Origin: a virus
Taxonomy: Duplodnaviria; Caudoviricetes
Virus record (IMG/VR): IMGVR_UViG_3300028591_000071
Length of the DNA stretch: 64,000 nucleotides
Direction: 5' to 3' (one strand)
Positions 25,050 to 61,090 of this stretch are shown one piece after another. The first letter of the stretch is position 1, and every line of letters begins with the position of its first letter. The notes under the pieces were generated by a model. It was not told the DNA's origin and did not search any database. It saw only the letters and a list, made by a program, of their open reading frames with translations. Position numbers and translations under genes: made by a program.

Positions 25050-25081
25050 TTTGTGCTATTCAAATTATTTTTGTATATTTG
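25050..25081 (+). promoter_or_regulatory. Sigma-A-type promoter
   Basis: TTTG-N20-TATATTTG. Confidence 0.65.
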
Positions 25082-33885: not shown

Positions 33886-33911
33886 AAAGTTAGATGAATT
33901 TTGTATATTTG
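33881..33911 (+). promoter_or_regulatory. Sigma-A-type promoter heading the small-gene array
   Basis: TTTG-N19-TATATTTG. Confidence 0.65.
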
Positions 33912-34059
33912 CGATATAGAAAATTAAAGAACAAAGATGAGTAAAAAAGATATTTTGAACGAGATTAAGTATCAGATGAATGAAGGATGTTCCGACTGCT
34001 TTGATTTCATTGATTGGCTCAGGGACTTCATTGACGAACAACTTGACGAATTTTAGGAT

Positions 34060-34278
34060 ATGACTAAGGAAGAAAAGAGAGAACAGTTTGCCCCGAAACG
34101 GTGGTCGTTATATTGCAACGATGTATTTGTTGCTTCGTTTGCATCACATACGGAAGCAAAACACGCGCTCTATAATAAGTGTGAAGAAATAAAAAAGCAT
34201 CCACGCAAATATCGCGGAAAATATTACACAATAAAACCAGACGAAAATGACACAGGAAGAGAAACGGGTTTTAATTAA
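34060..34278 (+). CDS. Hypothetical protein (MTKEEK start)
   Basis: ORF in array. Confidence 0.5.
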   Translation: MTKEEKREQFAPKRWSLYCNDVFVASFASHTEAKHALYNKCEEIKKHPRKYRGKYYTIKPDENDTGRETGFN

Positions 34279-34404
34279 CTGGTGTAAAAAGAAAAAGAAA
34301 GAATTTGATTGGTATCCTCTTACTATGCGTAATATTATATCCGGCAATCCGAACAAAGACAAAATAGAGTTGCTTGATGAATTTATTGAAAAAATATCAG
34401 AGTT

Positions 34405-34773
34405 ATGACACAGGAAGAAAAACAAATATTACTAAAAGACCTTTGCTCAAGGTTGTTTTATGGAGTTAGAGCAAGATTTTGCGATGGGGTAAAAGAGGAG
34501 ATAGATGATGTTTGGGACATTGATATGTTCAGTGGTGCAATCAATGCAGATTATATCATTGATGATGTCAAACCTTATCTCCGTCCAATGTCTTCTATGA
34601 CCGAGGAAGAGAAGGATGAGTTATTAAATCTTCGTAAGGAAATGAATATGCACATGCATCCGTGGATTGATAGAATATTGGATTTTTATCTTTCTCACCA
34701 TCTAGACTGGCGTGGTTTGATTCTCCTTGGACTCGCTCTTGAAGCACCGGAGGGCATGTATAAAACTGAATAG
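34405..34773 (+). CDS. Family A paralog
   Basis: MTQEEKQ..DLCSRL.YGV..KPYLRPMSSM..HHLDWRGLI..GLALEAPEGMYKTE. Confidence 0.75.
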   Translation: MTQEEKQILLKDLCSRLFYGVRARFCDGVKEEIDDVWDIDMFSGAINADYIIDDVKPYLRPMSSMTEEEKDELLNLRKEMNMHMHPWIDRILDFYLSHHLDWRGLILLGLALEAPEGMYKTE

Positions 34774-34779
34774 AACATT

Positions 34780-35238
34780 ATGTGCTTACTTACCACCCGC
34801 CAAACACCACTTGTCGCTGCTAACCCTATAAGAGTCTATAAGGTCCTGGAGGTGATGCCTCCACAATTGTCCTGTAGAACCCCATTCAGACATTTCGATA
34901 TAGCGTTCGATGAGGAAGGAAAATGTGAACTAAAAGCAGAAATAGAAGGGCAAAAATTTTCAACTGGCGTGTTCGTTGTCCAATCCGGAATACATTCATT
35001 CCGTAAACAATGGGCGGCAGAAGAATTAACAAAGGATATCGCACCATCCATACACATGGGACGGCATAGCAAAGCTAAAGTCTTCTATGCAATAATCCCA
35101 ACGGGAAGTGAATACTACCTCGGCGAGGATGAGGATATAGTGGCAAACCACATGATTATCTTCAAAAGACACGACCTTATGAGGGACTATATGAACAAAC
35201 AAGACATTACACATAGAAAATATGACACAGGAAGATAA
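34780..35238 (+). CDS. Hypothetical protein, paralog of 49863-50405
   Basis: MCL..YKVL..TPF..SGIHSF..IP.G pattern shared. Confidence 0.6.
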   Translation: MCLLTTRQTPLVAANPIRVYKVLEVMPPQLSCRTPFRHFDIAFDEEGKCELKAEIEGQKFSTGVFVVQSGIHSFRKQWAAEELTKDIAPSIHMGRHSKAKVFYAIIPTGSEYYLGEDEDIVANHMIIFKRHDLMRDYMNKQDITHRKYDTGR

Positions 35239-35671
35239 ACAACTATTACTCATAACACTTTGTGGTATGTTGCCTTATGGGGTAAATTTGCACATAGAGT
35301 TTTATGATTTGCAGGGCGATGGAAAACTTGCAAACAGGGATATAAAATTAACTCCGGGCAATATCGCCTATTGCTTTGATAACAGCCATTGGGTGAGTGT
35401 CAAACCTTATCTTCGCCTTATGTCAAGCATGACTGAAGAAGAGAAAGATGAACTCAATAATTTATTTAATGGTACATTTCAATATTTCAATCAAAGGGTT
35501 ATTTCAGCTGAATGGGATAACAATGAGGCAGTTTTTGTTGGAGAACTTGATTGCTCAAAGTTAATTGATTGGCTCAATGCCCATCACTTTGACTACCGTG
35601 GGTTAATTGAGAAAGGTCTTGCTCTTGAAGCACCGAAGGATATGTACAAAACTGAAAAGATATGGAAGTAG
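35222..35671 (+). CDS. Family A paralog
   Basis: Same termini, different central segment. Confidence 0.75.
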   Translation: MTQEDKQLLLITLCGMLPYGVNLHIEFYDLQGDGKLANRDIKLTPGNIAYCFDNSHWVSVKPYLRLMSSMTEEEKDELNNLFNGTFQYFNQRVISAEWDNNEAVFVGELDCSKLIDWLNAHHFDYRGLIEKGLALEAPKDMYKTEKIWK

Positions 35672-35853
35672 TAGCAAATAAACATTCAAAGAGATACCCG
35701 ATAGAAATAAACTTTCAGGATGTTGATAAGGAAGTTTCAGTTGTTTTTTCATTGGAAAATGCAAAAAAGTTGTTGTCTGACTTGGGCGCGGCAATTAAAG
35801 AGATAGAAAATGGGATTGGCATTGGAAGCACCTGAAGATATGTACACACAGAT

Positions 35854-36081
35854 ATGAACAGGAAAGACGAAATCATCATCGAAGCCGAGAAGGACCTTCT
35901 CGACCTCATAACAAGACTCAAGGGACTCCATGGGGCTTACGTCCGTGAACGTGACTACTGCGCCATACGGAACCTTGCACTGGCAGCTAACAACATAAAG
36001 AAAGACTGCATGAGAATCATGGACACCTTCGATTTCGTGGAACCCAACATGAGGGACAATGACCGCGACCTGCTGAGGTGA
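35854..36081 (+). CDS. Hypothetical protein
   Basis: ORF flanked on both sides by family-A C-terminal remnants. Confidence 0.55.
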   Translation: MNRKDEIIIEAEKDLLDLITRLKGLHGAYVRERDYCAIRNLALAANNIKKDCMRIMDTFDFVEPNMRDNDRDLLR

Positions 36082-36287
36082 CAAAAAAGATTTAGTTCTT
36101 GGAACACCTGAAGGAATGTATTAAAGCATATGAAAATAAAAGAACTTATTTGGAAACTAATAGAGCCCAGCGTGAAAAGAAAGCGTGCATATTATGAGGG
36201 GCTTTGGTGTAAAGGAAAAATGTCTGCCGGGGAAATGTGTGAGAAAGTTGCAAATCTTTATAGATTAAAACCCTAATATGAATAGAT

Positions 36288-36524
36288 ATGAATAAGATTT
36301 TACTTAACAGTTACGATGGTTTTGTCTCTTTTGTAGATGCTCATACCGGTAACATTCCCGGACACGGAAATGTCGTATCTGATTTTTGGACAAGCCCTGA
36401 AAAATATCCTTGTGTGGTCATTTGGGGTATTAGATATGATGGGAATGGTCCTGATGAACTATATGGGGAGTTTGTTTATTTAGATGATTTTGAAGCACCT
36501 GAAGATATGTATAAAACTGAATAA
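36288..36524 (+). CDS. Hypothetical protein ending in the family-A tail
   Basis: Unrelated body followed by FEAPEDMYKTE. Confidence 0.6.
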   Translation: MNKILLNSYDGFVSFVDAHTGNIPGHGNVVSDFWTSPEKYPCVVIWGIRYDGNGPDELYGEFVYLDDFEAPEDMYKTE

Positions 36525-36530
36525 ATTATT

Positions 36531-36713
36531 ATGAAATTCCGTCAGGCAAAAAAGATAGTTGAACATTGTGACAAATATCGTGGATGGTATCATGGAACAC
36601 CTCATTGGTATAAGAAGGCTGTACAGGTATATGTTCATCACAAAAAGCGAAGCAATTGGCATTTCTATGAATCAAGAAGAATTATCAACAAGCAAGGACA
36701 AATAATAATATGA
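36531..36713 (+). CDS. Small basic hypothetical protein
   Basis: MKFRQAKKI start; overlaps next ATG. Confidence 0.5.
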   Translation: MKFRQAKKIVEHCDKYRGWYHGTPHWYKKAVQVYVHHKKRSNWHFYESRRIINKQGQIII

Positions 36714-37069
36714 TTACCGAAGATTATGTAAGCTTTGAAACAGCAAAGATTTTGAAGGAAAAAGGGTTTGATGAAGAATGCATCTATGTTTATCGTCACG
36801 ACGGTTCGGAAGATATTTGGGATGCTGATGAAGAAGATATTGCATGTCAGAAGCCAACCCTCCAAATGGCTATGAAATGGTTAAGGGAAATTCACGATAT
36901 TGATATTGTTGTTACATTACACAGGCCGGATAATACTAAATGGTATCTTTGGGACGCTTATACCGATTCAGATGTCCATTATTCCAAATTTATTAATGGG
37001 TATGCGTATCGTAAAAATGAGGAAGCATGTGAAGCAGCAATAAAGTATTGTCTTGAAAATTTGATTTAG
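36710..37069 (+). CDS. Family B paralog
   Basis: MITEDYVSFETAKILKEKGFD..PTLQMAMKWLRE..EEACEAAIKYCLENLI. Confidence 0.75.
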   Translation: MITEDYVSFETAKILKEKGFDEECIYVYRHDGSEDIWDADEEDIACQKPTLQMAMKWLREIHDIDIVVTLHRPDNTKWYLWDAYTDSDVHYSKFINGYAYRKNEEACEAAIKYCLENLI

Positions 37070-37071
37070 AT

Positions 37072-37389
37072 ATGACACAGGAAGAATTAGACAGATATTG
37101 CAGGCAATACCTTTTGGATGTTCTTACTTACGAAGAATATCACAGCATGGGGCTCGACGGCTTCCGTGACTATGCGAAGGAACACATCATCCCAATCCCG
37201 AAGGCGGAACTTGTTGTCGGGCAGGAATACCCCGGTCACTGCAGGAATGCAAGCAGGGCGACTTGGGACGGAAAGAAGTTTCATTATGAAAAATATGAGT
37301 TTGGCACGGTTTTTGAAGAAACTATAAATCACTACGAGGACGATGACAAGATAGGAATTGATGTGTTCGTCCCGATAAAGGAAATTTAG
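37072..37389 (+). CDS. Hypothetical protein with a family-A-like start
   Basis: MTQEE then unrelated sequence (GHCRNA..WDG). Confidence 0.6.
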   Translation: MTQEELDRYCRQYLLDVLTYEEYHSMGLDGFRDYAKEHIIPIPKAELVVGQEYPGHCRNASRATWDGKKFHYEKYEFGTVFEETINHYEDDDKIGIDVFVPIKEI

Positions 37390-37406
37390 GCATAAAAGTA
37401 TGTAAT

Positions 37407-37769
37407 ATGGAACAGGATAAAAAGAAAGTACTTGTCCCGTGGGATGAATATCAGGGACTGTTAAAAGATAGCGAAGCCCTTAAAGAAGCGAGGGAAGAAT
37501 TGAAGAAAGACAGCAAGGAGCGTGGAGTTTATATGGAACACAAAATATATCTGTCAACCGAAAACCTTACAGGTCTTTCCTACATTAGTTCTGACATTCC
37601 CCGTCTGTCAATCATATCAAAGGAAGAAGGCCTTAAAGAGGCGCAGAATGAGATAGACAGGCTCTTGGTGGTGGTTAAAAACGTTAAGGATATTGCCGAG
37701 CAGCGCGAAAAAACTATTGACCGTCTCAGAAGTAGGAACCTATGGCAAAGGATTATTAACAAACGGTAA
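37407..37769 (+). CDS. Coiled-coil protein, paralog of 38058-38492
   Basis: KKV..P..EY..L..EL..D.KER..AQ.EI shared. Confidence 0.6.
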   Translation: MEQDKKKVLVPWDEYQGLLKDSEALKEAREELKKDSKERGVYMEHKIYLSTENLTGLSYISSDIPRLSIISKEEGLKEAQNEIDRLLVVVKNVKDIAEQREKTIDRLRSRNLWQRIINKR

Positions 37770-37820
37770 TTTAGCGGCAGTATGAAAGCTTCTGAAGAAA
37801 CGTATAAAACTGAATAAGGT

Positions 37821-38039
37821 ATGACTTACATTATTATAACCGTTGCGTTTGTACTTGGGTTACTCTGTTATGCGGTTGATAACATAATCACGAAATCAAA
37901 TGCTTTTCGTGAATTAAGAAAGACTCATTGGGAAACCGTCCTGAATTTAAAAACGTGGCTTAGTATTTTCATTATTCTGTGTGCAGCTGTTATTACATTA
38001 ACTGTAATATTTGGTGTAATTGGCGGAATTATTTTATAA
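37821..38039 (+). CDS. Two-TM membrane protein
   Basis: Two hydrophobic stretches. Confidence 0.55.
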   Translation: MTYIIITVAFVLGLLCYAVDNIITKSNAFRELRKTHWETVLNLKTWLSIFIILCAAVITLTVIFGVIGGIIL

Positions 38040-38057
38040 AAATGAGAAAAATATAAT

Positions 38058-38492
38058 ATGGAAACAACAGATACAAAGAAAGTGACACTCCCAATGTCGG
38101 AGTACGAATACCTCAAGGCGAGGGAAAAGGAAGCGGACGATATTAAGGCTGAACTCTTAAAGGAAGACAAGGAACGGAAGTATATCGTTATCAATGCAAG
38201 AGACCTTTATTATCGGGGAAAGGTCAATAAGTACATGGAAATATGGTCCGAGTCAGAAGTCTTAAGGGACGCACAGGATGAAATTAGCTACATGGACACA
38301 ATGCTGAACAGGGCTAATAAAACCATTGACTACTGCCGTGAGGAAATCCGCAAAGGAAACCACAACAAGGCTTGTCTTTATGATACCCTTATGGAGTGTA
38401 GGAAAATGACATTCTGTGAAAGGATTTTCAAGTGGAGGAAGATGAAGAAGAAGATGGAAGATGTTTTAAATGAAGATTCTAAACGAATTTAG
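38058..38492 (+). CDS. Coiled-coil protein, paralog of 37407-37769
   Basis: Shared N-terminal pattern with 37407-37769. Confidence 0.6.
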   Translation: METTDTKKVTLPMSEYEYLKAREKEADDIKAELLKEDKERKYIVINARDLYYRGKVNKYMEIWSESEVLRDAQDEISYMDTMLNRANKTIDYCREEIRKGNHNKACLYDTLMECRKMTFCERIFKWRKMKKKMEDVLNEDSKRI

Positions 38493-38496
38493 AAAT

Positions 38497-38676
38497 ATGA
38501 TTACTGAAGATTACGTTTCCTTTGAAACAGCCAAACTCCTTAAGGAAAAGGGGTTTGATAAAAAATGCTTTACTGTTTACAATAATAATCATGAATATCG
38601 TTCTTCAGATTATTTTGACTCTTATGAAGAAGCCTGTGAGGCAGGCATTAAATATTATCTTGAAAATTTGATTTAA
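38497..38676 (+). CDS. Family B paralog, internally deleted
   Basis: Both termini present; PTLQMAM core absent. Confidence 0.6.
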   Translation: MITEDYVSFETAKLLKEKGFDKKCFTVYNNNHEYRSSDYFDSYEEACEAGIKYYLENLI

Positions 38677-38678
38677 CA

Positions 38679-39125
38679 ATGGGATTGCCAAAAAGAGATT
38701 TATACGTTACATACCTTGGTGATGACAAAACCCTGTTTTTTTCTACATGGGTGCCACCAAAGAATAAAGACGGGGAATACTATCATCCATCCGATGTACC
38801 AATAGGGCTTGATATGTTCATTCCGAATGTACTCAATATGAAGCGTGATGAGGGGCCCGTTAAAGTTAAGGTGGTTAAGTCAGATAAGGAAACAGGATTA
38901 TGGCTTATATGCTATAATGATTGTTTCGGAAACGAAACACATCTTCACAATTACAAGCCAAGATTCAAACCAGATGCAAAATATCCGAAGATTGATTTCG
39001 ATTATGAAGATTCGCTTTATGATACAATGGACTATGAGCCTTGGTCAATCCACGTATGGGCTGAGGACTTTGGCATGAAAGCTGGTGACGGTCCAATACC
39101 AGTAACCCTTGAAGTATTGCCTTAA
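38679..39125 (+). CDS. Hypothetical protein
   Basis: Internal duplication GP(V/I)(K/P)V; 3' end overlaps a family-B tail remnant. Confidence 0.6.
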   Translation: MGLPKRDLYVTYLGDDKTLFFSTWVPPKNKDGEYYHPSDVPIGLDMFIPNVLNMKRDEGPVKVKVVKSDKETGLWLICYNDCFGNETHLHNYKPRFKPDAKYPKIDFDYEDSLYDTMDYEPWSIHVWAEDFGMKAGDGPIPVTLEVLP

Positions 39126-39144
39126 AAAATTGATTTAATAAACT

Positions 39145-39744
39145 ATGGATAATAGCCAACTATCAGAGCAGATAAACAAGAAATACGCCTCCCTGAAACG
39201 TCACGAGGCAAATGTAGAACGCTTGCTCAACAAAGAACCGTTCACAGAATTTGACAATAAAAAGTTGCACAGGGAAAAATATATGGTAAGGAAAATACGC
39301 AAGGCGATTTCCGATATTGAAGAACACCTCAAAAATAAGAATATGATTACAGAAGATTACGTTTCCTTTGAAATTGCAAAACTCCTTAAGGAAAAGGGGT
39401 TTGATGAAGTTACTTCAAAGTGGTATTTGAAATATAAAGGAGAATATTCCCTCGTTTCAAGAGGAAGTGCTGAACATACAGATGATTCCATTGATGTCCC
39501 AACTCTTCAAATGGCAATGAGGTGGCTGAGAGAAGTACATCACTTGTTCATTGGTGTTGAACCGAGACTGAGCTTTACCGACTACTACTGGATAACAGCT
39601 AATGTGTACAGAGTAAGAAAAAAGAACAGTTTATACCATGCCGAGCCTGTAGATGACTATAGCTGCGTGGCTTGCTGCGATGGGGATTCTTTTGAGGACG
39701 CCTGTGAAAAGGCTATTAAGTATTGTCTTGAAAATTTGATTTAG
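39145..39744 (+). CDS. Family B paralog with a fused N-terminal extension (B starts at 39343)
   Basis: MITEDY begins at codon 67. Confidence 0.7.
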   Translation: MDNSQLSEQINKKYASLKRHEANVERLLNKEPFTEFDNKKLHREKYMVRKIRKAISDIEEHLKNKNMITEDYVSFEIAKLLKEKGFDEVTSKWYLKYKGEYSLVSRGSAEHTDDSIDVPTLQMAMRWLREVHHLFIGVEPRLSFTDYYWITANVYRVRKKNSLYHAEPVDDYSCVACCDGDSFEDACEKAIKYCLENLI

Positions 39745-39893
39745 ATATGACTAAAGAACAAGCAATAGAACAACTTGAACAATCCATAGATGGGTGGTAC
39801 GAGTTTTGGGATGATGCTTCTCATCATATATCTGAAAAGGATATTGAAGCGATACAGATTTTGATTGAAATCGCAAAAAATAGTAAATAATAT

Positions 39894-41081
39894 ATGAAAC
39901 AAGAAGAAGCAATAGAAAGAATTAAGGCTCGTTTTGATAAATGGGCTTTGGATAATGAAGACATGAAAGCGATTCAAACCCTTATTCCCGAACTCCGCGA
40001 GAACGAGGACGAGAGGATAAGAAAGGCGTTGATTGAGGGTGTGAGACAAATTCGTTGTAAGAATGGTATCACGCAAGAACAGATGGTTGCTTACCTCGAA
40101 AAGCAGAAAGAAACAGGGATTCAATGGTTTAAAAGTGATAATGTGAAAAATCCCGACAAGCCGTATATTGACAAGGCAGGAATGTTTTACACGACTGACG
40201 GCAGAATGTGTTATGCTTCCGAGATTGAAAAGCAGAAAGAACAGAAGCCAATCAAGTGGACAGATTTGACTTGGAAAGATATAGTTGAGCTTGAAGGTAT
40301 CATCAATAATGTCCACTACGATTTCAGTGATGGAATAGGCCAAGAATCATTCGGAAAAGAAGTTCTTGAGAGATTTCGTAGTACAAAGGGCATAGAATAT
40401 CTTGATGAAGCAGAACAAAAGTATTGGCGAGAAGAGGGACAGAAAGAGCAGAAACTTGCTTGCGAAGACAATTTTAAGTGGACAAGTCAAGATGAAAGAT
40501 GTAGAGGCAAACTAATAGATATACTTGAACTCGCTGATATAAAATATCCAGCAACAAAAGATAGTAGAGACGAATTGTGGGAATGGCTAAAAGAATTACC
40601 AATGAAATTCCCCAACAAAAATGCTTTTGTATATGGTACTTTAGATAGTGACGATAAGTGGTCACAAACCGAAGAAATCTTAGGCGTTGATGGGAATCCT
40701 ACTTGCTATAAGCAGAAGCCCGCAGATGATAAATCCTTTGAAGAATGGATTGATGATTGGTGGAAATACAATAAGGTAAACAATCCTGATTCATATAACA
40801 AAGGCGATGAAATTCAATTCGACGAACAGGGTTTCAAGAGATTTTGCCGGGGCATTAGAAATATGTATCAACAGAAGCTCGTACATACCGCAAAAGAGAT
40901 GTGGAAAGAAATGAGGCTTGAGACATATGCTCAGGCATCTGGCAATCGCCACGAGCCAAATTATTCTGATGATTCTACGAAAATGTTTTCACTTTGTGAT
41001 ATAGACGAAATCTTCGAGAAAATCGATAATTCTATTGTTGGTTACAGCCCACAGATGATGTATCCAAAGAAGTATGTATAA
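39894..41081 (+). CDS. Family C modular protein
   Basis: Modules delimited by EDERIRK, YLEKQKE, KEQKP. Confidence 0.7.
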   Translation: MKQEEAIERIKARFDKWALDNEDMKAIQTLIPELRENEDERIRKALIEGVRQIRCKNGITQEQMVAYLEKQKETGIQWFKSDNVKNPDKPYIDKAGMFYTTDGRMCYASEIEKQKEQKPIKWTDLTWKDIVELEGIINNVHYDFSDGIGQESFGKEVLERFRSTKGIEYLDEAEQKYWREEGQKEQKLACEDNFKWTSQDERCRGKLIDILELADIKYPATKDSRDELWEWLKELPMKFPNKNAFVYGTLDSDDKWSQTEEILGVDGNPTCYKQKPADDKSFEEWIDDWWKYNKVNNPDSYNKGDEIQFDEQGFKRFCRGIRNMYQQKLVHTAKEMWKEMRLETYAQASGNRHEPNYSDDSTKMFSLCDIDEIFEKIDNSIVGYSPQMMYPKKYV

Positions 41082-41093
41082 AAACGATTAGAT

Positions 41094-41405
41094 ATGAGTA
41101 AAGCATTTTTCATTTATAGGGACGGCGAAAAATTCGGGAATCCAACGGGATACACGACAGAGAAAGGCGCGAAGAAATCACTTGTAGGTTGTGATGATTG
41201 GTACAGGCTCCTGATGCCTTATCAACTTCTCAATGCGAAGGAAGACATTAGCGAAGAAATGAAGGCAACAGGTTTCTTCTATTGGAGCAAATACGGCAAC
41301 TGTTGGTTGTTTGACAGGAAGGTTTGGAGCAGGAAAATATGGGCTCCGTATGTCAAGGAACACTATCAGATTATCGAAAAAAATTACGAAATAAATACCG
41401 ATTAG
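41094..41405 (+). CDS. Hypothetical protein
   Basis: ORF bounded by ATTAGATATG on both sides. Confidence 0.55.
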   Translation: MSKAFFIYRDGEKFGNPTGYTTEKGAKKSLVGCDDWYRLLMPYQLLNAKEDISEEMKATGFFYWSKYGNCWLFDRKVWSRKIWAPYVKEHYQIIEKNYEINTD

Positions 41406-41407
41406 AT

Positions 41408-41806
41408 ATGACACAAGAAGAAAAACAGTTACTCTTTAAGGACCTTTGTTCGAGGTTGCCTTATGGGGTTAAATGCAAAATACGTTATACGTTCAATAAC
41501 GAAACAACTTTTGGTGAGGATGTTGAAGCGGAAGAAGATGACGTTCTTGTCAAAATAGACCCACAAATCCAATCTGCATTTTTTGATTGGTATGGTGATT
41601 TTATAAGTATTGAAAATTTCAAGCCTTATCTCCGCCCAATGTCAAGTATGACGAAAGCAGAAAAGGAGGAATATGAGAAAATGACTGCTTGGGGCTCCTT
41701 TGATTGGGAAATGGTTGATTTCTATAATGAGCATCACTTTGATTATCGTGGATTGATACCTATGGGCCTCGCTCTTGAAGCACCTGAGGGAATGTATAAA
41801 CAGTAA
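41408..41806 (+). CDS. Family A paralog
   Basis: Conserved termini. Confidence 0.75.
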   Translation: MTQEEKQLLFKDLCSRLPYGVKCKIRYTFNNETTFGEDVEAEEDDVLVKIDPQIQSAFFDWYGDFISIENFKPYLRPMSSMTKAEKEEYEKMTAWGSFDWEMVDFYNEHHFDYRGLIPMGLALEAPEGMYKQ

Positions 41807-41920
41807 ATGATATGGACAAGGCGGAATATAATGTAACAATGTATCATTGCTACGTGAAATGCAAGCCACAGGAGGAAAAATGCAAGGACTGCGAGTTATT
41901 AAAGATTTATAGGGAAATAT

Positions 41921-42283
41921 ATGACACAGGAAGAAAAACAACTATTGCTGATTGATTTAAGTGCGAGGCTACCTTATGGAGTAAAAGTTCATATCACAGA
42001 CGAGTGGTTTTATGATAAGATTGAACCATATGATAGAAGACTTGATTGTGATGTTATAAAACATATAAGAGAAAATCGATACACAGTCAAGCCATATCTC
42101 CGTCCAATGTCAAGTATGACAATGGAAGAGAAAAGAGAGTATATCCCTGTTGGAAGAGGTATGTCCCCCGATAATCCAAGTGTTTTAGCTGATTGGCTCA
42201 ACGAACATTACTTTGACTATCGTGGTTTAATCCCAATGGGGCTTGCTCTTGAAGCACCTGCAGGAATGTATAAAGCAGTATAA
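41921..42283 (+). CDS. Family A paralog
   Basis: Conserved termini. Confidence 0.75.
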   Translation: MTQEEKQLLLIDLSARLPYGVKVHITDEWFYDKIEPYDRRLDCDVIKHIRENRYTVKPYLRPMSSMTMEEKREYIPVGRGMSPDNPSVLADWLNEHYFDYRGLIPMGLALEAPAGMYKAV

Positions 42284-42296
42284 AACACAGAAAAAA

Positions 42297-42515
42297 ATGG
42301 ATTACGAAAATTTTATAAATGAATACGATAAACAGCATGCTTGCTGCCCAATATGTCACAGTGAGAATTTTTCTTCAACAATGGTGGCATATCCCTACTA
42401 TGAAGAACATCCTGAAAATTACAAAGACAGGAATCGTGTGAGATGCCATGATTGTGGATGGGTAGGAATACGGCACGAACTTATTCCAATTATAAAGATG
42501 AGTAAAAAGAAATAA
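42297..42515 (+). CDS. Zn-ribbon protein
   Basis: CPIC...CHDC. Confidence 0.6.
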   Translation: MDYENFINEYDKQHACCPICHSENFSSTMVAYPYYEEHPENYKDRNRVRCHDCGWVGIRHELIPIIKMSKKK

Positions 42516-42528
42516 TAGAGATAGAAAT

Positions 42529-43182
42529 ATGAAACAAGAAGATAAACAACTTTTATTAATAGATTTATCTGCAAGGTTGCCTTATAAGGTGAAGGGGGTA
42601 TATGCCAGAACCGATATTAAAAACCTGTCCATATGTGAAATCACCGCGCATCTATATGGTGAGATGGAAGAATCATTTAATGGAAAAGAAAAATGCGAGT
42701 TTATCCCCTATCTCCGCCCAATGTCAAGTATGACGGAGGAAGAAGAAAATGAATATAGAGCAATAAATTGTTATGAAGGCTTATTTCCTCGTAATGAAGA
42801 AGCCCTTGATTATGTTCTTGAACATCATTTTGACTATCGCGGCTTGATTGAAAAAGGTTTTGCTCTTGAAGCACCTCCGGGGATGTATAATAAAGAAGAG
42901 TCAGAAAAAGAGAGTGAGATTCCCATCCCAAAAACCGTTGATGAGGCAGTAAAAACTTTGGCTAAGATAGTTTCAAAAGAAGACAGGGATTACCTTCTCG
43001 AAAACGGTGCAATTTCAATGCATAACTCATTGGGTAGATGGATTAGGAATGAATGGGGACTATGGACCGGTTCTGAACTTAAAGATGAGATGATGAATAT
43101 GAATAAAGGCCTTAATCACCCTGATGATATGTCGAATTATATTATAGAAGAATTCATTAAATATTGGAATAGTAAAATATGA
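42529..43182 (+). CDS. Family A paralog with a fused C-terminal domain (DUF6794-like)
   Basis: After EAPPGMY: PKTVDEAV..HNSLGRWIRNEWGLW..HPDDMS. Confidence 0.65.
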   Translation: MKQEDKQLLLIDLSARLPYKVKGVYARTDIKNLSICEITAHLYGEMEESFNGKEKCEFIPYLRPMSSMTEEEENEYRAINCYEGLFPRNEEALDYVLEHHFDYRGLIEKGFALEAPPGMYNKEESEKESEIPIPKTVDEAVKTLAKIVSKEDRDYLLENGAISMHNSLGRWIRNEWGLWTGSELKDEMMNMNKGLNHPDDMSNYIIEEFIKYWNSKI

Positions 43183-43574
43183 TGACTGAGGACTACGTTA
43201 GTTTTGAAACGGCAAAACTCCTGAAAGAAAAGGGGTTTGATGGAGATGGCAGTCATTTCTATGAAAATAAAAAGATTGTTAGTTTTGTTGATTATTGGAA
43301 TAGAATAACACCTTATGAAAGGTATTGTGCTATAGAATGCCCAACCCTCCAAATGGCTATGAAGTGGTTGAGGGAAGTGCATAATCTCCATTGTGCTGTT
43401 GATTATGATTTTGCCCTCGGATGGTATTGCCAAATTACTAGCCTCAAAGAAACCGTTGAATACGATTACGAAGAATTAGTGAAACATTATCATCCGGAGA
43501 AGAACAGCGGTTTTTCATCCCCAGAAGAAGCCTGTGAATCGGCTATTAAGTATTGTCTTGAAAATTTGATTTAG
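43179..43574 (+). CDS. Family B paralog
   Basis: Conserved termini and PTLQMAMKWLRE. Confidence 0.75.
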   Translation: MMTEDYVSFETAKLLKEKGFDGDGSHFYENKKIVSFVDYWNRITPYERYCAIECPTLQMAMKWLREVHNLHCAVDYDFALGWYCQITSLKETVEYDYEELVKHYHPEKNSGFSSPEEACESAIKYCLENLI

Positions 43575-43884
43575 ATGGACAACACAGTAACAACAGAGAA
43601 ACTTAATCTGTATCTCTTCTCAGGAAGTCCTTCGAGGCTTTGCATTTGTTTTTGCCAATAAATCTTTGTATTTTTATATAAATAAGAATTATAACAAGAG
43701 AAAAAATGAAAACAACATTAACCTTGGGTGACATTGGAACGATAACAATCCCAAAGAAAAAAGAAGCTCAACAGTGGCTTTATTCGCTAATTGAAAGTTT
43801 TGTGTGGAGAAAGGATTATCCATATAGTAAAACTCAAATTCTTAAATATATTGCTGAATTATAAACACAATACAGGTAAGAATT

Positions 43885-45873
43885 ATGACAAGAGAAGAAG
43901 CAATAAAAGAAATCAAGATGTGGGGAATCGAAGCCCCAAGACAAAGAGAAGCACTTGAAACACTCATCCCCGAACTCAAAGAGACCGAGGACGAGAGGAT
44001 AAGAAAAGCGCTTATTAACCTCGTAAGTACGGTTGGAGAGTATTATCTCCCGAAACTTGAAGCCAGAAACAAGATGCTTGCCTACCTTGAAAAGCAAGAG
44101 ATATTTTCAAAAAATGGAGAAGGTTGTTACTATTATCACGCAGATGGTAATTATACTTTTATTGGCTCGATGGGGTTCGGACCAATCGAAGATATAAAAC
44201 TTAACGGGGAGCGACCTAAAACCGAAAATAATAGCGTTGACTTGTCAGGTGCTTGTCTTTGTGTAGAAAAACAGAAAGAAGCAAGTAAAGCAATAGAAGC
44301 GGTAGATAGGATTGACAAGTACATTGATGAACATCTTGCCAATGCTCATGATATGAAGGATTCCAACCCTGACAAAAAGTATTACCGTGGATGGGATGAC
44401 GCTCTTGGTGAAATGGCTAGAATATTGCAAGATGTTTATTCGGGAGAAAAGCAGAAAGAATCTTTACATATTTCCGAAACATGTAAAGAAAGTGCTGATT
44501 CTTTTACAGATGAGGACGAGAGGATAAGGAAATGGTTGTATGACTATATAAGTAATTGTCCTAATAATAACTTTGCCTTCTACGGTGGGGTCGGTAAAGA
44601 TGCAGTCTTGAACTACCTCGAAAAGCAGAAAGAAGAGGAAGGATATGAGGAAATTCCTGTGGAATCCACACTTGAATATAAGTTGGGATTTAAAGCGGGC
44701 AAGGAATCTGAAAAACAGAAAGAGCAAGAACATATTTGTGATTCATATCAATTTGAGGAAGGATTCAAGACAGGTTTAGAAATAGGCTTGAGGAATCAGA
44801 AAGAGCAAAAGCCCATACGCGATATTATATCCGGTGATGCTATTGAGTCTTGTATGCTTCGTTATCTCCAATCCGCCGCTAATCGGAAGGATGACATTGA
44901 AATTATTGAAGATACGAAAAAATATAAAAAGGAACTTCTTGAAATAATCGAAAAAGAGCAGAAGCCAGTGGAATGGGACGATGATGAGATGATGTGTAAA
45001 AGGGCAATAGCGATATTAAAACGACAACGAGACTTTTGGAGTTATGACGGGTCAATGGATAAATTCCCACCAGCAACGCCGAGAAAAGACCTTGTCAATG
45101 CTCTTGATATTGCTATATCTTACCTTGAAAAGCATAAACTTGATGCTTCAAAACTTGAGAACTTTGACCCTGTTGATGTACTTAATAGGATAAAGACGGA
45201 GTGGCCGATGGCTTGGGAAAAAGTTGTCGGAAAGCAAGAGTGGAGCGAAAAGGATGAACGGATAAGGAAAGGATTAATTAACTTCCTTCGTTCTTCGTTC
45301 ATCAAAGAAAACGTCACTGATGAAACGGTTGCCCCGTGGATTACCTACCTTGAAAGGCAGAAGCCGTTCGTTACAATACCTGCGACTGAAATTGTCAAAA
45401 ACGAGCCAATGGAGATGCCAAGCGGAGAGTCTCTCGATGCTTTAGCAGATGTTGTACAAGCCAAAGATTGGAAGCCCACCGAGAAACAAAAATATGATGG
45501 AAATATGGATAATGAATGTATTAAGCTTTGTAATACTCTCAATTCCATCCCATCAATAGATACATTTGAATCTTGCTGCGGGCATTTGAAAGACAGGTAT
45601 TCTATATGGTTTTTCTGTAATGATATTATTACAATCTCACGACTTGGAAGATGTGTTGAGCGTAATTATTCTGACGGGAAGTGGGAGTTACTTGTGGATT
45701 CAACTGACACCCACCCAACCGGTGTTTTCTGTTTGAGAAGCAAAGTTCCTTTCCAAGATTATGTTGAAATGGATGAATCTGTAAATGAACTGTGTAACGG
45801 TATTCAATATTGGTTTAACGCGAAATTTGATTCCTATTTTAATGCGAGATTGGGAATAACAGAAACAACCTAA
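43885..45873 (+). CDS. Family C modular protein (about 10 modules)
   Basis: Three DERIRK and many EKQ/KEQKP junctions; terminal TFESCCGH domain. Confidence 0.7.
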   Translation: MTREEAIKEIKMWGIEAPRQREALETLIPELKETEDERIRKALINLVSTVGEYYLPKLEARNKMLAYLEKQEIFSKNGEGCYYYHADGNYTFIGSMGFGPIEDIKLNGERPKTENNSVDLSGACLCVEKQKEASKAIEAVDRIDKYIDEHLANAHDMKDSNPDKKYYRGWDDALGEMARILQDVYSGEKQKESLHISETCKESADSFTDEDERIRKWLYDYISNCPNNNFAFYGGVGKDAVLNYLEKQKEEEGYEEIPVESTLEYKLGFKAGKESEKQKEQEHICDSYQFEEGFKTGLEIGLRNQKEQKPIRDIISGDAIESCMLRYLQSAANRKDDIEIIEDTKKYKKELLEIIEKEQKPVEWDDDEMMCKRAIAILKRQRDFWSYDGSMDKFPPATPRKDLVNALDIAISYLEKHKLDASKLENFDPVDVLNRIKTEWPMAWEKVVGKQEWSEKDERIRKGLINFLRSSFIKENVTDETVAPWITYLERQKPFVTIPATEIVKNEPMEMPSGESLDALADVVQAKDWKPTEKQKYDGNMDNECIKLCNTLNSIPSIDTFESCCGHLKDRYSIWFFCNDIITISRLGRCVERNYSDGKWELLVDSTDTHPTGVFCLRSKVPFQDYVEMDESVNELCNGIQYWFNAKFDSYFNARLGITETT

Positions 45874-53717: not shown

Positions 53718-54088
53718 AGTTCAAGTCCTTTAACCTAAATCTATGACTATATACCCTAAAAGTCCAGAATTCTTACAACACTAAAAGGGATAATTCCGAA
53801 TATTTGTTGAAAGTGCTGAAAGAATCTGTCATATCCCGAGTATGAGTAACTATGAAACTCCCGTTAAAAGTAGCCTCATGATAACACTCGACACTTTTCC
53901 GACTTTTTACGTCGAAAAGTGAAACTTTCTGTCGGGTGGCGCGTATATACTCATGCCTTCTGATTGGTAAAGGGTGCCTTTCAGTCGTAGAGTAGCCGGA
54001 CACGGTCCGGTGACGCCAACCGAGCTGCGGAATCAGCCGCGGTGGATCATTACCCGCTAGTATCAATAGAAAACCAAAACTATCTGCA

Positions 54089-54334
54089 ATGACGACAAAC
54101 ATCGCTGTAGCCGCGCAGATTGCGCGCCCCACTATCCCTTTTGTTCTCAAGAGCGTCCTTCCTGCCGAGACGGAAAGCCGTCTTGACCGAATCTGCTGCG
54201 GAGCTCCCGTGGCCGAGGTCTATCGGGACGAGTCCCGCCCCTGGTGGGGGCTTGTTGATAACGACAAGGTCTACGAGACCATCGCCTCTGACCATTTACA
54301 GGCCTATGTCCGACTGATATCCGCCAATGCCTGA
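54089..54334 (+). CDS. Hypothetical protein
   Basis: ORF overlapping the start of the sigma factor gene. Confidence 0.45.
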   Translation: MTTNIAVAAQIARPTIPFVLKSVLPAETESRLDRICCGAPVAEVYRDESRPWWGLVDNDKVYETIASDHLQAYVRLISANA

Positions 54335-54875
54335 GCCTATGGCCAAAACCGGACGGACTTTTGTCTTTGACGCCGAAGCGGCGCTCAAAGCGGCCACCCT
54401 CGCCGTTATCGGCCTCACCTCCGCCTGGAAGTACAAACTTCAGGAATCGGACAGGAAGGAGATAATCGCCGAGGCCGTAGCCAAGGCGTGGAGCCACCGA
54501 GAAACTTATGACGCAGTACGGGCCTCTTTCCAGACCTGGGTCGGACGTATCGCACGAAACACCCTGCTGGATCATATCCGCAGGGCCAAGTCCCGGGAGG
54601 ACTCCCCTGCCCAGGAGAACGACGTAATGGCCGAGAAGTCTCCCGACACGTTAATGATGGAGGACGAAGGACTCGAGGCTATCCAGCGTGCCGTAGAAAG
54701 GCTTCCCGAGGCATATAGAGATATTATTGCCCTCTTATCGGAAGGCAAGCGTCCCCAGGAGATTGCCGAGATCCTGGGATGCTCCCCAAATGCAGCCACC
54801 ATTCGCTGCTGCCGTGCCCGCAAGGCGCTGCGAGAGCTTCTTAAAGGGAACATGCAAGAAAGCGGACGTCAATAG
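54327..54875 (+). CDS. ECF-type RNA polymerase sigma factor
   Basis: Region 2 SFQTWVGRIARNTLLDHIRR; region 4 LPEAYR..EIAEILG..RARKALR. Confidence 0.85.
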   Translation: MPEPMAKTGRTFVFDAEAALKAATLAVIGLTSAWKYKLQESDRKEIIAEAVAKAWSHRETYDAVRASFQTWVGRIARNTLLDHIRRAKSREDSPAQENDVMAEKSPDTLMMEDEGLEAIQRAVERLPEAYRDIIALLSEGKRPQEIAEILGCSPNAATIRCCRARKALRELLKGNMQESGRQ

Positions 54876-54903
54876 GTATAAATAGGAAAACGAACTGACG
54901 AAT

Positions 54904-56610
54904 ATGAGAAGCAAAAGAGAATCCACCATCTTTGAAGAGAAGAACTTCATTTCCGAGGACGAGACGGTCCAGACCCAGGCGGCATGCCTGAACCGCATTT
55001 ATCGTAAGGTAAATTCCACCGGCCTTTCCGCCGATACTATCCAGGAGCTCCGTGACGATATCGATTACGTCGCCGAGCGCTACCATATCGACAACCAAGG
55101 AGCGGTGCTTCTTGCCGCCATCCTCGAGAAGTCGGCCACCAACAACCTCATGGACGACGAGGACCTGGCTATGTATCTCGGCTGCACGAACATCGAGTTC
55201 ATCCGCTATCACAAGAAGCTTCGCGACATGGACAAGGCGGGAATCATTCAGATTGGCGGAGGTCGTGGCGGCCGTCGTTGCTATAGGGTGAGCCCGGAGA
55301 CGCTGAAGGCCGTTGAGAGCAACGGGGAGTTCAGCCCGGTAAAGATGTCCGGACTTACGACGGAGGAGTTCTTCTCCCGTTTCCGCAAGTTCTTCGGATC
55401 GTTCAGAAACGACACTATAGATGCAGATCGGCTTCTGGAAGAGCTGGATAGCCTGGTAAGCTACAACGACCATCTTTCCTTCTGCAAGAAAGCTTTGGAG
55501 TCTGCTCTCTACTCCGATTGCACCAACACGGAGCGCAGGATGTTCTATTACATCTGCCATCGCTACGTAACACACGGGAGCAAATCCGTGGATATCGAGA
55601 CTCTCACGAACTTCACCGAGTTCATGGAGGATGACGAATGCATCAAACGCCGCATCGCCAACGAGCATATGTCCATGCAGCGTAGCGGCCTTGTCAGCTT
55701 TGCCATCGAGGATGGATTCGTGGACACGGGCTCCTTGTCCCTTTCCGACAAGGTAAAGGCAGAGTTCTTCAACGAGGTAGTCTTGACCCCGGAGGAAACC
55801 GTTCGTCATCGCGATATCGTCAGCGCTGAAACCATCCAGGAGAAGGAGCTCTTCTTCAACGAGGCGGAGAGCGCCCAGGTAGCCCGCCTGGAGAACCTCC
55901 TTGACGCCGAGAATTTCAAGGAGGTGCAGAGACGTCTTCTCTCTACAGGAATGCGCAAGGGGTTCAATGCCATCTTCTACGGTGCCCCGGGCACTGGCAA
56001 GACCGCCAGCGTATACGAACTTGCCCGTCGCAGCGGCAGGGACATCTTCCGCGTGGACATGACCAAGCTCAAGAGCAAGTGGGTTGGTGATAGCGAGAAG
56101 GCGGTTCGTGGTGTGTTCAAGATTTACCGGGCTATGTGCAAGGGCAAGGAAAAGGCTCCCATCCTGCTTTTCAACGAGGCGGATGCTGTCTTCACAAAGC
56201 GTATAGAGAACGTCGAGCAGAGCGTCGACCAGATGAACAACGCCATCCAGAACATCATCCTGGAGGAGATGGAAAGCATCGAGGGCATCCTCATCGCCAC
56301 CACCAACCTCCTCTCCAACCTGGACCCTGCCTTCGAGCGCAGGTTCATCTTCAAAGTTGAGTTCAAGATGCCCGAGAAAGACTCCCGTGCCAAGATTTGG
56401 AAGTCCATGATTCCAGGTCTCTCGGATGAGGACGCGGCCGTTCTTGCCGACAAGTATGCCTTCTCCGGCGGCAACATCGAGAACATCGCACGGAAGAGCA
56501 CCGTTGAATATGTCCTTTCCGGGAACGAGCCCACACTTTCGTCCTTGGAGGGTTACTGCCAGGAGGAGATTCTAGACCGTAAGGAGAATCGCAACCGAAT
56601 CGGATTCTAG
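54904..56610 (+). CDS. AAA+ ATPase
   Basis: GAPGTGKT, LLFNEAD, TTN, LDPAFERR, C-terminal RIGF. Confidence 0.85.
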   Translation: MRSKRESTIFEEKNFISEDETVQTQAACLNRIYRKVNSTGLSADTIQELRDDIDYVAERYHIDNQGAVLLAAILEKSATNNLMDDEDLAMYLGCTNIEFIRYHKKLRDMDKAGIIQIGGGRGGRRCYRVSPETLKAVESNGEFSPVKMSGLTTEEFFSRFRKFFGSFRNDTIDADRLLEELDSLVSYNDHLSFCKKALESALYSDCTNTERRMFYYICHRYVTHGSKSVDIETLTNFTEFMEDDECIKRRIANEHMSMQRSGLVSFAIEDGFVDTGSLSLSDKVKAEFFNEVVLTPEETVRHRDIVSAETIQEKELFFNEAESAQVARLENLLDAENFKEVQRRLLSTGMRKGFNAIFYGAPGTGKTASVYELARRSGRDIFRVDMTKLKSKWVGDSEKAVRGVFKIYRAMCKGKEKAPILLFNEADAVFTKRIENVEQSVDQMNNAIQNIILEEMESIEGILIATTNLLSNLDPAFERRFIFKVEFKMPEKDSRAKIWKSMIPGLSDEDAAVLADKYAFSGGNIENIARKSTVEYVLSGNEPTLSSLEGYCQEEILDRKENRNRIGF

Positions 56611-56649
56611 GCGAAAGAATCCTCATTACAACTTGTATATAATACCACT

Positions 56650-57729
56650 ATGGCAAATATCAACGTTAATACAACCGAGCTGATCCAGCTCCTCGACATT
56701 ACTCCCGCCGACCACAATCTCATGCTGGTGGGCAAGCACGGTATCGGCAAGTCGGAGATTCTGACAGACTATTTCTCCAAGAAGGACATGCCCGTTGTGG
56801 CGCTCTTCTTGGGCCAGATGAGCGACCCGGGTGACCTCATAGGCATTCCCAACAAGAACGAAGAGACCGGCAAGACGGATTTTATGCCTCCTTACTGGTT
56901 TCCGCTGGATGGCAAGCCCATCGTCCTCTTCCTTGACGAACTGAATCGCGCAAGGCCGGAAATCCTCCAGACCATCATGGACCTGGCGCTTAACCGCAAA
57001 CTTGCCGGACGCAAACTCCCGGAGGGCAGCCGCATCATCAGTGCTGTGAATGCTGGTGACCAGTACCAGCTGACGGATCTTGACCCGGCGCTGGTCAGTC
57101 GTTTCAATATCGTGAACTTCCGTCCTACCGTGCAGGAGTGGTTGCTTTGGGCTCGCAAAGCCGATGTGGATGGCCGTGTCATCGACTTCATCCAGGAGAA
57201 CCAGATTTGGTTGGACAAAGACCCCGATGCGAAGGAAGGTGAAGATACCGGCCTGGACAAAACCCCTGACCGGCGCGGCTGGAAGCGTGTCTCGGATATT
57301 CTCAAGCAATCCGGGGAACTGAGCCCGCTGCTTACCAAGGCAATCTCTGCCGTTGTTGGCCCGAAGGCAGCCAGTGCCTTCGTCAGCAATGTTTCCAGCC
57401 GGAAGATAGTTTCCGGACGTGAGGTGATCCTGGGCTTCCCTAAGGTCAAGGAAAAACTGGACAAGTATGAGCTTCACCAGATCTCGGTGGTCAATGACGG
57501 CATCTACCGATTCCTTGAGGTTGAGAAGGTATCAGCTAAAGACAAGGAAACGGCCAAGAAGAACCTTGAGGACTACTTCTGTTATCTGACAAAGTCCAAG
57601 AAAGAGGCCGCAGCTCACTTTGCCAACCTCTTCGTCCAAAAGACGTACCCTAACGCCGTGGCGTTCATCGCAAGGGAGTGTCAGGTCCTGACTATGATGT
57701 TCATCTCCTACGTGAAAGGAATCAAGTAA
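56650..57729 (+). CDS. MoxR-like AAA+ ATPase
   Basis: GKHGIGKS, LFLDELNRA, DLDPALVSRF. Confidence 0.85.
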   Translation: MANINVNTTELIQLLDITPADHNLMLVGKHGIGKSEILTDYFSKKDMPVVALFLGQMSDPGDLIGIPNKNEETGKTDFMPPYWFPLDGKPIVLFLDELNRARPEILQTIMDLALNRKLAGRKLPEGSRIISAVNAGDQYQLTDLDPALVSRFNIVNFRPTVQEWLLWARKADVDGRVIDFIQENQIWLDKDPDAKEGEDTGLDKTPDRRGWKRVSDILKQSGELSPLLTKAISAVVGPKAASAFVSNVSSRKIVSGREVILGFPKVKEKLDKYELHQISVVNDGIYRFLEVEKVSAKDKETAKKNLEDYFCYLTKSKKEAAAHFANLFVQKTYPNAVAFIARECQVLTMMFISYVKGIK

Positions 57730-58914: not shown

Positions 58915-59465
58915 ATGGAAAGAAAATACAGGAAATGACCGAGGAGGAAGTCCTCAATCACGTGGCTACGGCTATTCATGACTATCTGATGCGAATTCGT
59001 CCGCAGCACGGCGAATTCGTTCTGGAGGATTGCATGGCCAGACAGGTCAGTGAGTTGAAGATGCTGTTCCGCTGGAGTCGCGGGCTGGGAAGGAGGGATT
59101 CCTTGAGTCCCCAGGATGTTCAGGAGCTTGACATTACCATCAATCATTTCCTGCCTCAGATGCAGGAGCGGGCTCGTGCCGTGCAACTGCATTATACTAA
59201 AGAGCAAACCCTGTGGAAGATCAAAGGGACTTCGGCAGAAGCGCTCATCAAGAAGGCTTTTCAGGATGTGGGAATGAAAGCAGTCGTAGAGTGCCAGAGG
59301 TATCGAGCTAAAGTAATTATCGACCTTGGCGGGCGCACACTTCGTATCTATGTGGGATTCAAGGCCCTTGAGCAGGAGGACACTCTGCCCAATGTGACCC
59401 GGGCGGTTCTGGACTTGAAGGATGCCGCGTGCCGGATTGGTGGTGATATTAAACTTGGAAGATAG
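58911..59465 (+). CDS. Hypothetical protein
   Basis: Coupled to the vWA gene; MTEEEVLN segment resembles the next gene. Confidence 0.55.
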   Translation: MNGKKIQEMTEEEVLNHVATAIHDYLMRIRPQHGEFVLEDCMARQVSELKMLFRWSRGLGRRDSLSPQDVQELDITINHFLPQMQERARAVQLHYTKEQTLWKIKGTSAEALIKKAFQDVGMKAVVECQRYRAKVIIDLGGRTLRIYVGFKALEQEDTLPNVTRAVLDLKDAACRIGGDIKLGR

Positions 59466-59466
59466 T

Positions 59467-60827: not shown

Positions 60828-60886
60828 TTCCGTGTAAGAATATATCCGGTCTTCGGTATAAGTAGACGATAACACAAACGGACACT

Positions 60887-61087
60887 ATGAAGAACGAAGA
60901 CCAATTCCCCACAGACAAGCTGGTGCAGAATACCATTTCTGCCTTCAGGAACGGATACATTGGAGACGAACAGGCCATGTTTGCCATTGACTTTGCGGCC
61001 AAGCTGGGCGATACAGATGCTCAGGCACTGCTCGATAAGTGCAAGGAAATCGGTGTAGCAGAGGCGTTTAACTCAATCGGCAAGTAG
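60887..61087 (+). CDS. Hypothetical protein
   Basis: Short ORF in co-oriented run. Confidence 0.45.
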   Translation: MKNEDQFPTDKLVQNTISAFRNGYIGDEQAMFAIDFAAKLGDTDAQALLDKCKEIGVAEAFNSIGK

Positions 61088-61090
61088 TCT

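Follow-up and report, generated by a model that had tools for sequence, protein, structure and literature searches.

How can a run of small phage genes keep nearly the same ends while their neighbors and their interiors change? The question is raised by a gene array in IMG/VR virus record IMGVR_UViG_3300028591_000071 (Duplodnaviria; Caudoviricetes), a stretch of 64,000 nucleotides that is called the window here and whose source we read as an uncultured rumen jumbo phage. The array spans 33937-43574 (9.6 kb). Open reading frame (ORF) and spacer analysis gives about 29 small genes, all on the + strand and tightly packed, with gaps of 2-19 nucleotides (nt) or ATGA overlaps. This packing fits the translational coupling that a first-pass annotation, made from the sequence, had proposed. 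The same annotation regarded the ends of two gene families, A and B, as boundary sequences of an integron-like platform that swaps, deletes and captures unrelated cargo genes. The account that we consider moderately probable is that conserved blocks of the paralogs double as crossover points in a hyperplastic accessory region, and that scars are left by illegitimate and microhomology-mediated deletions.

Profile searches of the window confirmed five family-A and four family-B genes in the array. The family-A copies lie at 34405-34773 (A1, 122 amino acids (aa)), 35222-35671 (149 aa), 41408-41806 (132 aa), 41921-42283 (120 aa) and 42529-43182 (A5). The usual stop of the second copy is mutated, so four extra codons are read. 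A5 carries a C-terminal fusion in which residues 133-212 match DUF6794 (PF20594; 75.3 bits against a Pfam gathering cut-off of 27.1), and this combination of family A and DUF6794 is found again in other phages. The family-B genes are B1 (36710-37069), a 59-aa mini-gene (38497-38676) that has only head and tail after in-frame deletion of the middle and the beta-sheet, B3 (39145-39744), whose B domain (39343-39744) sits behind an unrelated 66-aa N-terminal extension, and B4 (43179-43574). Family B corresponds to phrog_12005, which has no function annotation in PHROGs, by profile matches of B1, B3 and B4 (E 3.3e-12, 1.3e-8 and 2.6e-11). The match is nearly full-length in B1 (profile positions 2-127 of 137) and covers the N-terminal two-thirds in B3 (2-90) and B4 (2-97). 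Most copies of the two families are acidic, with isoelectric points (pI) of 4.5-5.6; the exception is the B3 fusion (pI 6.4). The families had been described as having constant ends around a variable middle. The ends are indeed constant, but both families also hold a conserved middle block, KPYLRPMSSMTEEEK in family A and PTLQMAMKWLREVH in family B.

Mosaicism and the positions of joins

The array was compared with fetched relative contigs, which carry L-numbers and are all metagenome assemblies. BLASTN against these loci resolves it into gene-sized patches with 80-97% identity to L005, L009, L012, L038, L079, L080, L123 and others, and the order of the patches differs in each relative contig. 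The variability that the first-pass annotation expected among relatives is present: the array is non-syntenic, an assembly of shuffled patches from different contigs. Outside gene 39894-41081, 24 of about 30 distinct patch ends lie in family blocks or no more than 12 nt from a gene boundary, and family blocks and gene boundaries together make up 29% of the array sequence. Breakpoints are non-random relative to the motifs by this count, as had been predicted, but part of the excess is an alignment artefact, and the count is superseded by base-level alignments.

In these alignments the resolvable joins switch identity in the last 15-40 nt of an A tail, in the middle block or at a start codon. 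L060 and L049 are perfectly identical from the final 36 nt of an A tail onward and stand at paralog level upstream. The pairs L060 and L030, L025 and L066, and L066 and L030 switch in the final 15 nt, inside the GAAGCACCTGAAGGAATGTAT core, and the A-tail core is present at at least five junctions in relatives. Middle blocks are used as well. L063 and L034 share 100% identity as far as the middle block and are unrelated beyond it. L064 and L045 switch at the tail: they share 100% identity from upstream through the second variable segment, after which the tail is 0.78 identical and the downstream sequence is unrelated. Two paralogs that lie 6 kb apart in L036 are 99% identical in their second variable segment and about 50-60% identical elsewhere; the shared segment is delimited by the middle and tail blocks. 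No joins were found inside a variable segment, though variable segments make up about half of each gene.

Whole genes are exchanged too. The 53-aa gene 34247-34408 behaves as a discrete module: it recurs in L005 and L080 with 92-97% identity beginning exactly at the ATG, its upstream neighbors are unrelated in both contigs, and the downstream gene differs in L080. Two family tails that stand outside their genes mark other module borders. The stray A tail at 37782-37817 is shared between the window and L005 together with the left-hand gene, and between the window and L079 together with the right-hand gene, while L038 and the window have in common just the last 14 nt of this tail and the right-hand gene. 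The stray B tail at 39109-39138 follows the same gene in L012, where the next gene differs. At these junctions (37782-37817 against L005, L079 and L038; 39109-39138 against L012) a short conserved sequence is present in both partners, as a boundary sequence would be. B1, B3 and B4 have 34-36 identical nt spanning the stop and the next ATG, and the codons just upstream of this run differ synonymously.

Scars and the protein scaffold

The five stray family ends listed in the first-pass annotation are all present and translate as described there. With at most 3 mismatches, a 24-nt A-tail sequence is found at 7 places in the window where 0.00 are expected, and 3 of the 7 lie outside intact A genes. 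A 27-nt B-tail sequence occurs 5 times against 0.00 expected, once as a stray. The stray A tails sit in the wider spacers of the array (18, 48 and 51 nt). The first of them, MGLALEAPEDMYTQI at 35807-35857 (+ strand, like all features of the array), crosses the 3' end of gene 35662-35835 out of frame and has a stop of its own, which overlaps the ATG of gene 35854. Its segment 35807-35848 is significant alone (E 5.5e-5) in a six-frame search of the window with a hidden Markov model (HMM). The second, at 36086-36124, is a degenerate copy in the 48-nt spacer 5' of gene 36130; as protein it gives a weak match, and its 24-nt DNA core is matched with 3 mismatches. The tail at 37782-37817 (MKASEETYKTE) occupies the 51-nt spacer at the join of two modules. 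It is degenerate in the window, and its counterpart in L005 reads MEAPEGMYKN; since it has drifted this far, its peptide is not under selection. The stray B tail at 39109-39138 runs out of frame across the stop of gene 38679-39125, in the 19-nt gap 5' of 39145, and outscores all matches in a reversed-sequence control. Two of the four stray tails in the window still have an ATG, with a stop adjoining or overlapping the next start.

The remaining A tail (36489-36524) is in frame at the end of the unrelated gene 36288-36524 and is 84% identical to the A1 tail over 44 nt. Relatives of this gene end in DDFEA or DDFED, and the window gene continues with PEDMYKTE. The join falls at the 8-nt microhomology TTGAAGCA, which is also present in the A tail. 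The sequence carries the signature of a microhomology-mediated fusion, which would arise most simply from deletion of an adjacent A gene. A second instance of an A-type tail on an unrelated gene was seen in L079 (1-190), where an ORF without the family-A body ends in frame with LKASEDMYKTK, just 5' of the homologue of gene 37821-38039.

Fragments are found in the relatives too. Beside 235 intact A genes there are 17 tail-only, 8 head-only and 2 head-plus-tail pieces, and no middle-only piece. Beside 148 intact B genes there are 8 tail-only, 6 head-only and 1 middle-only pieces. Most of the A tail-only pieces start at the GLALEAPEGMY segment, in short out-of-frame stretches, and the stray A tails share a minimum of about 40 nt (about 14 codons) directly 5' of the next start. 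This common minimum suggests, as a reading of the sequence, that they may be retained for translation of the downstream gene.

Why the blocks are conserved in intact genes was approached through structure models and codon usage. AlphaFold2 models were built from alignments of 93 family-A and 83 family-B sequences, with the copies at 41408-41806 and 43179-43574 as the modelled genes. The family-A model has a predicted local distance difference test score (pLDDT) of 86 and a predicted template modelling score (pTM) of 0.79; for family B the values are 88 and 0.82. In both models the conserved blocks are the parts of highest confidence and the variable regions are beta-strands. The A head is a helix (residues 3-19), the middle a strand and a helix (71-94), and the tail a helix and a C-terminal segment, while the variable part consists of beta-strands (22-67) at lower confidence. 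In short, the family-A model runs from an N-terminal helix through a small, variable beta-barrel to a set of C-terminal helices. In family B all three conserved blocks are helical, and three strands form the variable sheet (70-104). In both models the conserved blocks make up the scaffold of a single domain. Fold searches with family A found no clear relative (best Z 3.8, to small beta-barrels; Foldseek E > 0.5). The best match of family B was to proteins resembling the double-stranded RNA-binding domain (dsRBD), with Z 5.4, a root-mean-square deviation of 3.4 over 68 residues and Foldseek E > 0.1; this alpha-beta3-alpha match of the C-terminal half is beneath the level that the tool calls meaningful.

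Codon usage was analyzed in 205 A genes and 138 B genes, with synonymous entropy expressed relative to the variable regions of the same family. The ratio is 0.83-0.93 for the A middle and tail blocks and 0.73-0.82 for the B blocks. The last 14 codons of family A show a mild reduction (0.81-0.83) and the last 8 codons of family B are mildly constrained (0.60-0.67), while the first 7 codons of family A (codons 2-7) are strongly biased (0.52-0.59). Since synonymous sites of the A tail are nearly free, the blocks are kept mainly by protein selection and not as DNA sites. The idea of ends as dedicated boundary sequences does not survive these results: the ends are segments of a structural core. An internal block is equally conserved and equally used for crossover. 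That the A-tail end might be the putative late promoter of this genome was considered and rejected, as the motif (C/A)TATTTAT is absent from it.

Weighing the explanations

We propose that the array is a hyperplastic accessory-gene region, probably expressed as one host-promoter-driven, translationally coupled transcription unit, with two multi-copy families of small, mostly acidic, phage-only proteins at its center. The conserved blocks of these proteins (head, middle and tail) form the folding core, which protein selection maintains. The blocks recur dozens of times per genome and in co-infecting relatives, with runs of 15-36 nt of identical DNA, and so would incidentally provide sites at which homologous or short-homology recombination crosses over. 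Some exchanges would swap variable segments between paralogs; others would move whole neighboring genes along with the last 15-40 nt or so of the upstream family gene. Homology would drive these exchanges through an acting recombinase, and the genes are presumed to be expressed early. Illegitimate and microhomology-mediated deletions would leave the scars, which are stray out-of-frame tails, head-plus-tail mini-genes and in-frame fusions, and stray tails would persist because they lie within about 40 nt directly 5' of the next start codon. The joins give partial support to the earlier claim that end homologies swap and delete genes, but not to the claim that they capture cargo. The variable sheet is probably a binding surface, and our guess is that the A and B proteins are polymorphic binders of host or defence factors.

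Several observations weigh against this account. In most tail events identity is 0.91-0.95 in the flank and only 0.70-0.79 over the tail as a whole, whose upstream two-thirds are at paralog level. Part of the enrichment of patch ends in blocks is therefore an artefact of BLAST extension, which continues into the conserved block where a shared gene adjoins two different paralogs. The resolved joins are few, about 10-15 independent events, and they come from distant relatives that are farther apart than RB49 and phi1; no relative was found near enough for mapping every breakpoint of the array. All the junctions are from metagenome assemblies, in which repeats can yield chimeric contigs. Joins located right at start codons are equally well explained if recombination was illegitimate and selection then kept the intact genes. 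No recombinase gene was identified in the window; the Pfam and PHROG scans covered the flanking and larger ORFs and part of the smallest ones. Expression timing and protein function, finally, enter the account by inference.

The strongest competitor is plain birth-and-death of tandem paralogs together with illegitimate recombination, where only joins that leave intact coupled genes survive. The conserved ends would then have no mechanistic part and the stray tails would be decaying relics. Much that is seen at the tails agrees with this: the nearly free synonymous sites of the A tail, the loss of the family peptide from the 37782 tail relative to its L005 counterpart, the several joins placed exactly at an ATG, and the mostly paralog-level identity of the tail in tail events. 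With spacers of 2-6 nt, any viable join must also resemble a gene-boundary join. Random breakage is an unlikely source, however, of in-register switches within coding blocks, where sequence that is 99-100% identical gives way to unrelated sequence, and it should have left joins in the variable-segment interiors as well. On balance we regard birth-and-death without block-guided exchange as unlikely.

A second alternative assigns the conserved ends a role in translation. The last 40 nt or so of a family gene, its stop, the spacer and the next start would together be a re-initiation unit for the downstream gene, so that the tail end travels with that gene, and the first 7 codons or so (ATG ACA CAR GAA GAA AAA CAA) would be a favored start context. 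The shrinkage of stray tails to a common minimum of about 14 codons directly 5' of the next ATG argues for such a unit, as do the two window stray tails that hold an ATG and a stop at the next start, the co-inheritance of tail end and downstream gene, and the strong synonymous bias of the first A codons. The first-pass annotation had pointed to similar heads on unrelated ORFs, and these were confirmed: 12 ORFs begin with an MT[QK]EE-type head, and all of them are + strand ORFs of the 34-52 kb interval; the rest of the window has no such ORF. These heads mark this gene class and not the whole genome. But the last 14 codons of family A have only mildly reduced synonymous diversity, and many array genes are packed just as tightly without an upstream tail. 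The re-initiation idea, drawn from sequence, seems improbable as the full explanation, and it is compatible with crossover at paralog blocks rather than exclusive of it. We give a similarly low probability to a stronger form, in which the last 40 nt or so, the stop, a spacer of 2-6 nt, the ATG and the A-rich first codons are a selected, portable junction element. If true, translation would be coupled through this element, crossover would take place there by preference, and the element would be a coding-embedded counterpart of the PeSL cassettes of T4, moving single genes between co-infecting giant phages, perhaps via circles.

A dedicated cassette system, integron-like or PeSL-like, with ends selected as sites for a specific enzyme and with circular intermediates, is very unlikely: junction sequences do repeat at module borders, the B paralogs do share 34-36 nt of perfect identity over stop and start, and the last 8 B codons do have reduced synonymous diversity, but no integrase, reverse transcriptase or other recombinase is present among the ORFs scanned in or beside the array, no attC-like repeat is among the 25 longest inverted repeats of the region, promoter-like and terminator-like sites show no enrichment, crossover falls in the internal middle block as much as at the ends, and the A-tail synonymous sites are free.

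The array in its genome, its relatives and known systems

Four genes of the array illustrate the shared heads. The MTKEE-head gene 34060-34278 (72 aa) has a 3' end that crosses the head of the next gene, the MTQEE-head module 34247-34408, in another frame. The unrelated MTQEE-head gene 37072-37389 (105 aa) lies directly 3' of the B1 tail junction TTTAGATATGAC, and the MTKEQ-head gene 39747-39890 (47 aa) follows the B3 tail junction, which is identical to that of B1. The head of gene 39747 is common to genes 39894 and 43885 (MTxEEAIExI). Three upstream genes have no stop of their own (34230-34278, 35222-35238 and 41921-41955) and run through the ATGACACAGGAAGA head of the next gene in another frame, all with DTGR-type ends; such readthrough ends fit what start-codon joins would leave. 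Within gene 39894-41081 shared patches stop at recurring internal positions (nt ~194, 333-354, 540-564, 818-854 and 975-988), a pattern that fits shuffled mini-domains with EKQKE-type linkers (39894-41081 and 43885-45873).

Two Bacteroidota-type promoter-like motifs flank the array, TTTGTATATTTG at 33900-33911, within the 51-nt spacer 5' of it, and TTTGTATTTTTA at 43665-43676, within the 310-nt spacer 3' of it. They resemble the TTTGTATATT motif of the same genome, and the window has 10 motifs of their class where 3.0 would be expected. No exact motif of the flanking type occurs inside the array. The array shows no enrichment of promoter-like sites (48 against 41.7 expected) or of terminator-like sites (9 against 8.4 expected), and no site of either kind recurs at junctions. 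As no exact motif lies within the array and terminator-like sites are not enriched, it is plausible that the array is a single host-transcribed, translationally coupled unit. The form TTTGTAT(A/T)TTT(G/A) was seen in spacers at 33900-33911, 43665-43676, 25070-25081 and 11626-11637, and it precedes the array, gene 43885 and a ClpB-like gene. It is possibly a host-type promoter.

Pfam and PHROG matches among the larger ORFs and in the neighborhood of the array are to SprT-like, NUDIX, DUF6794, ClpB-like and UvrD proteins. The G+C content shifts from about 0.39-0.41 to 0.52-0.55 past about 54 kb, where the ORFs (54000-64000) include an AAA ATPase and a VWA/DUF2201 pair; the shift may reflect a different module, inserted foreign DNA or a join made in assembly. 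Recoding of TAG was considered and rejected, as table 11 leaves the long conserved ORFs unbroken and the ends of the families align with TAG and TAA stops alike.

Family A is found in 113 IMG/VR stretches and family B in 267, on contigs of up to 413 kb from rumen giant phages, and some relatives have up to 28 family-A matches within 20 kb. The ESM Atlas lists both families as viral hypothetical proteins. Family A is also found on contigs of 286-410 kb from rumen metagenome-assembled genomes (MAGs) with inconsistent bacterial labels. Several A genes each were seen on L166, L170, L171, L176, L177, L184 and L185, which are labelled Bacteroidales, Firmicutes, Erysipelotrichaceae or Bacilli; these contigs look like jumbo-phage genomes mis-binned as bacteria. 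None of the rumen MAG loci with family A is close to the array. Among GenBank phages nothing matches the array as DNA or family A as protein. A search for a close relative through the flanking SprT-like protein returned a single match, at 50% identity (L001). The NUDIX gene and gene 38679 have no matches in IMG/VR, and gene 39894 has only partial matches in JGI metagenomes, the best being the 4.5-kb contig L079. Many of the contigs at loci L003-L078 end less than 10 kb from a family-A gene, and a 363-kb contig carries genes of both families at each of its ends. Such arrays may be places where assemblies tend to break.

The array is a variant of known phage mosaicism and not an integron-like machine. 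Integron arrays are built by the IntI tyrosine recombinase from an attI site and attC imperfect inverted repeats. The array resembles them in its co-directional, small, mostly promoterless genes, its border repeats and its one putative upstream promoter. It differs in that no tyrosine recombinase or attC-type repeat was found and that its repeats are coding and also occur inside genes. An IntI-type integrase is absent from the Pfam and PHROG scans described above. Among 64 inverted-repeat pairs in 32-46 kb, none of the 25 longest listed recurs at gene ends in the manner of attC; the repeated ends are direct coding repeats. The likeness to integrons put forward in the first-pass annotation is not borne out.

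The likeness to PeSL cassettes that it also drew fails in one respect and may hold in another. The PeSL cassettes of T4-type phages are non-coding and consist of a sigma-70-like early promoter and a terminator stem-loop (Arbiol et al., 2010, PMC2839356; Comeau et al., 2014, PMC4122927). There, too, short repeats are dispersed in hyperplastic regions of small ORFans; in T4-type phages recombination between repeats inserts, deletes and replaces genes between related phages, as may also happen in the array. The repeats of the array, in contrast, are coding blocks of two protein families under protein selection, and no promoter-plus-terminator unit flanks its genes. Also comparable are two ideas on mosaicism. 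Pope et al. (2011, PMC3029335) cite a model of short conserved "boundary sequences" at module junctions of lambdoid phages, and De Paepe et al. (2014, PMC3945230) treat relaxed homologous recombination, which phage recombinases carry out. Here as in the array, mosaic joins at gene borders are explained by short imperfect homologies. At most junctions of those phages no such sequence can be found, whereas the homologies of the array are obvious and numerous because they are part of expanded paralog families. Multigene expansions are known from jumbo phages, as in the zinc-ribbon family of Bacillus phage G with about 35 copies (Iyer et al., 2021, PMC7824862). Both cases have many copies of a small family whose function is not known in a giant phage genome. 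The array differs in that two families are interleaved with unrelated genes and in that segmental exchange and stray ends are documented.

Little is understood of how giant phages assemble and renew their large sets of small accessory genes. Short homologies at boundaries are an old proposal for the cause of phage mosaicism, but they are seldom seen at junctions. In the array they are plain, numerous and coding, so the boundary idea becomes testable in rumen phage populations. The two large phage-only families, with a fixed scaffold and a swappable beta-sheet, are candidates for polymorphic proteins that bind host or defence factors.

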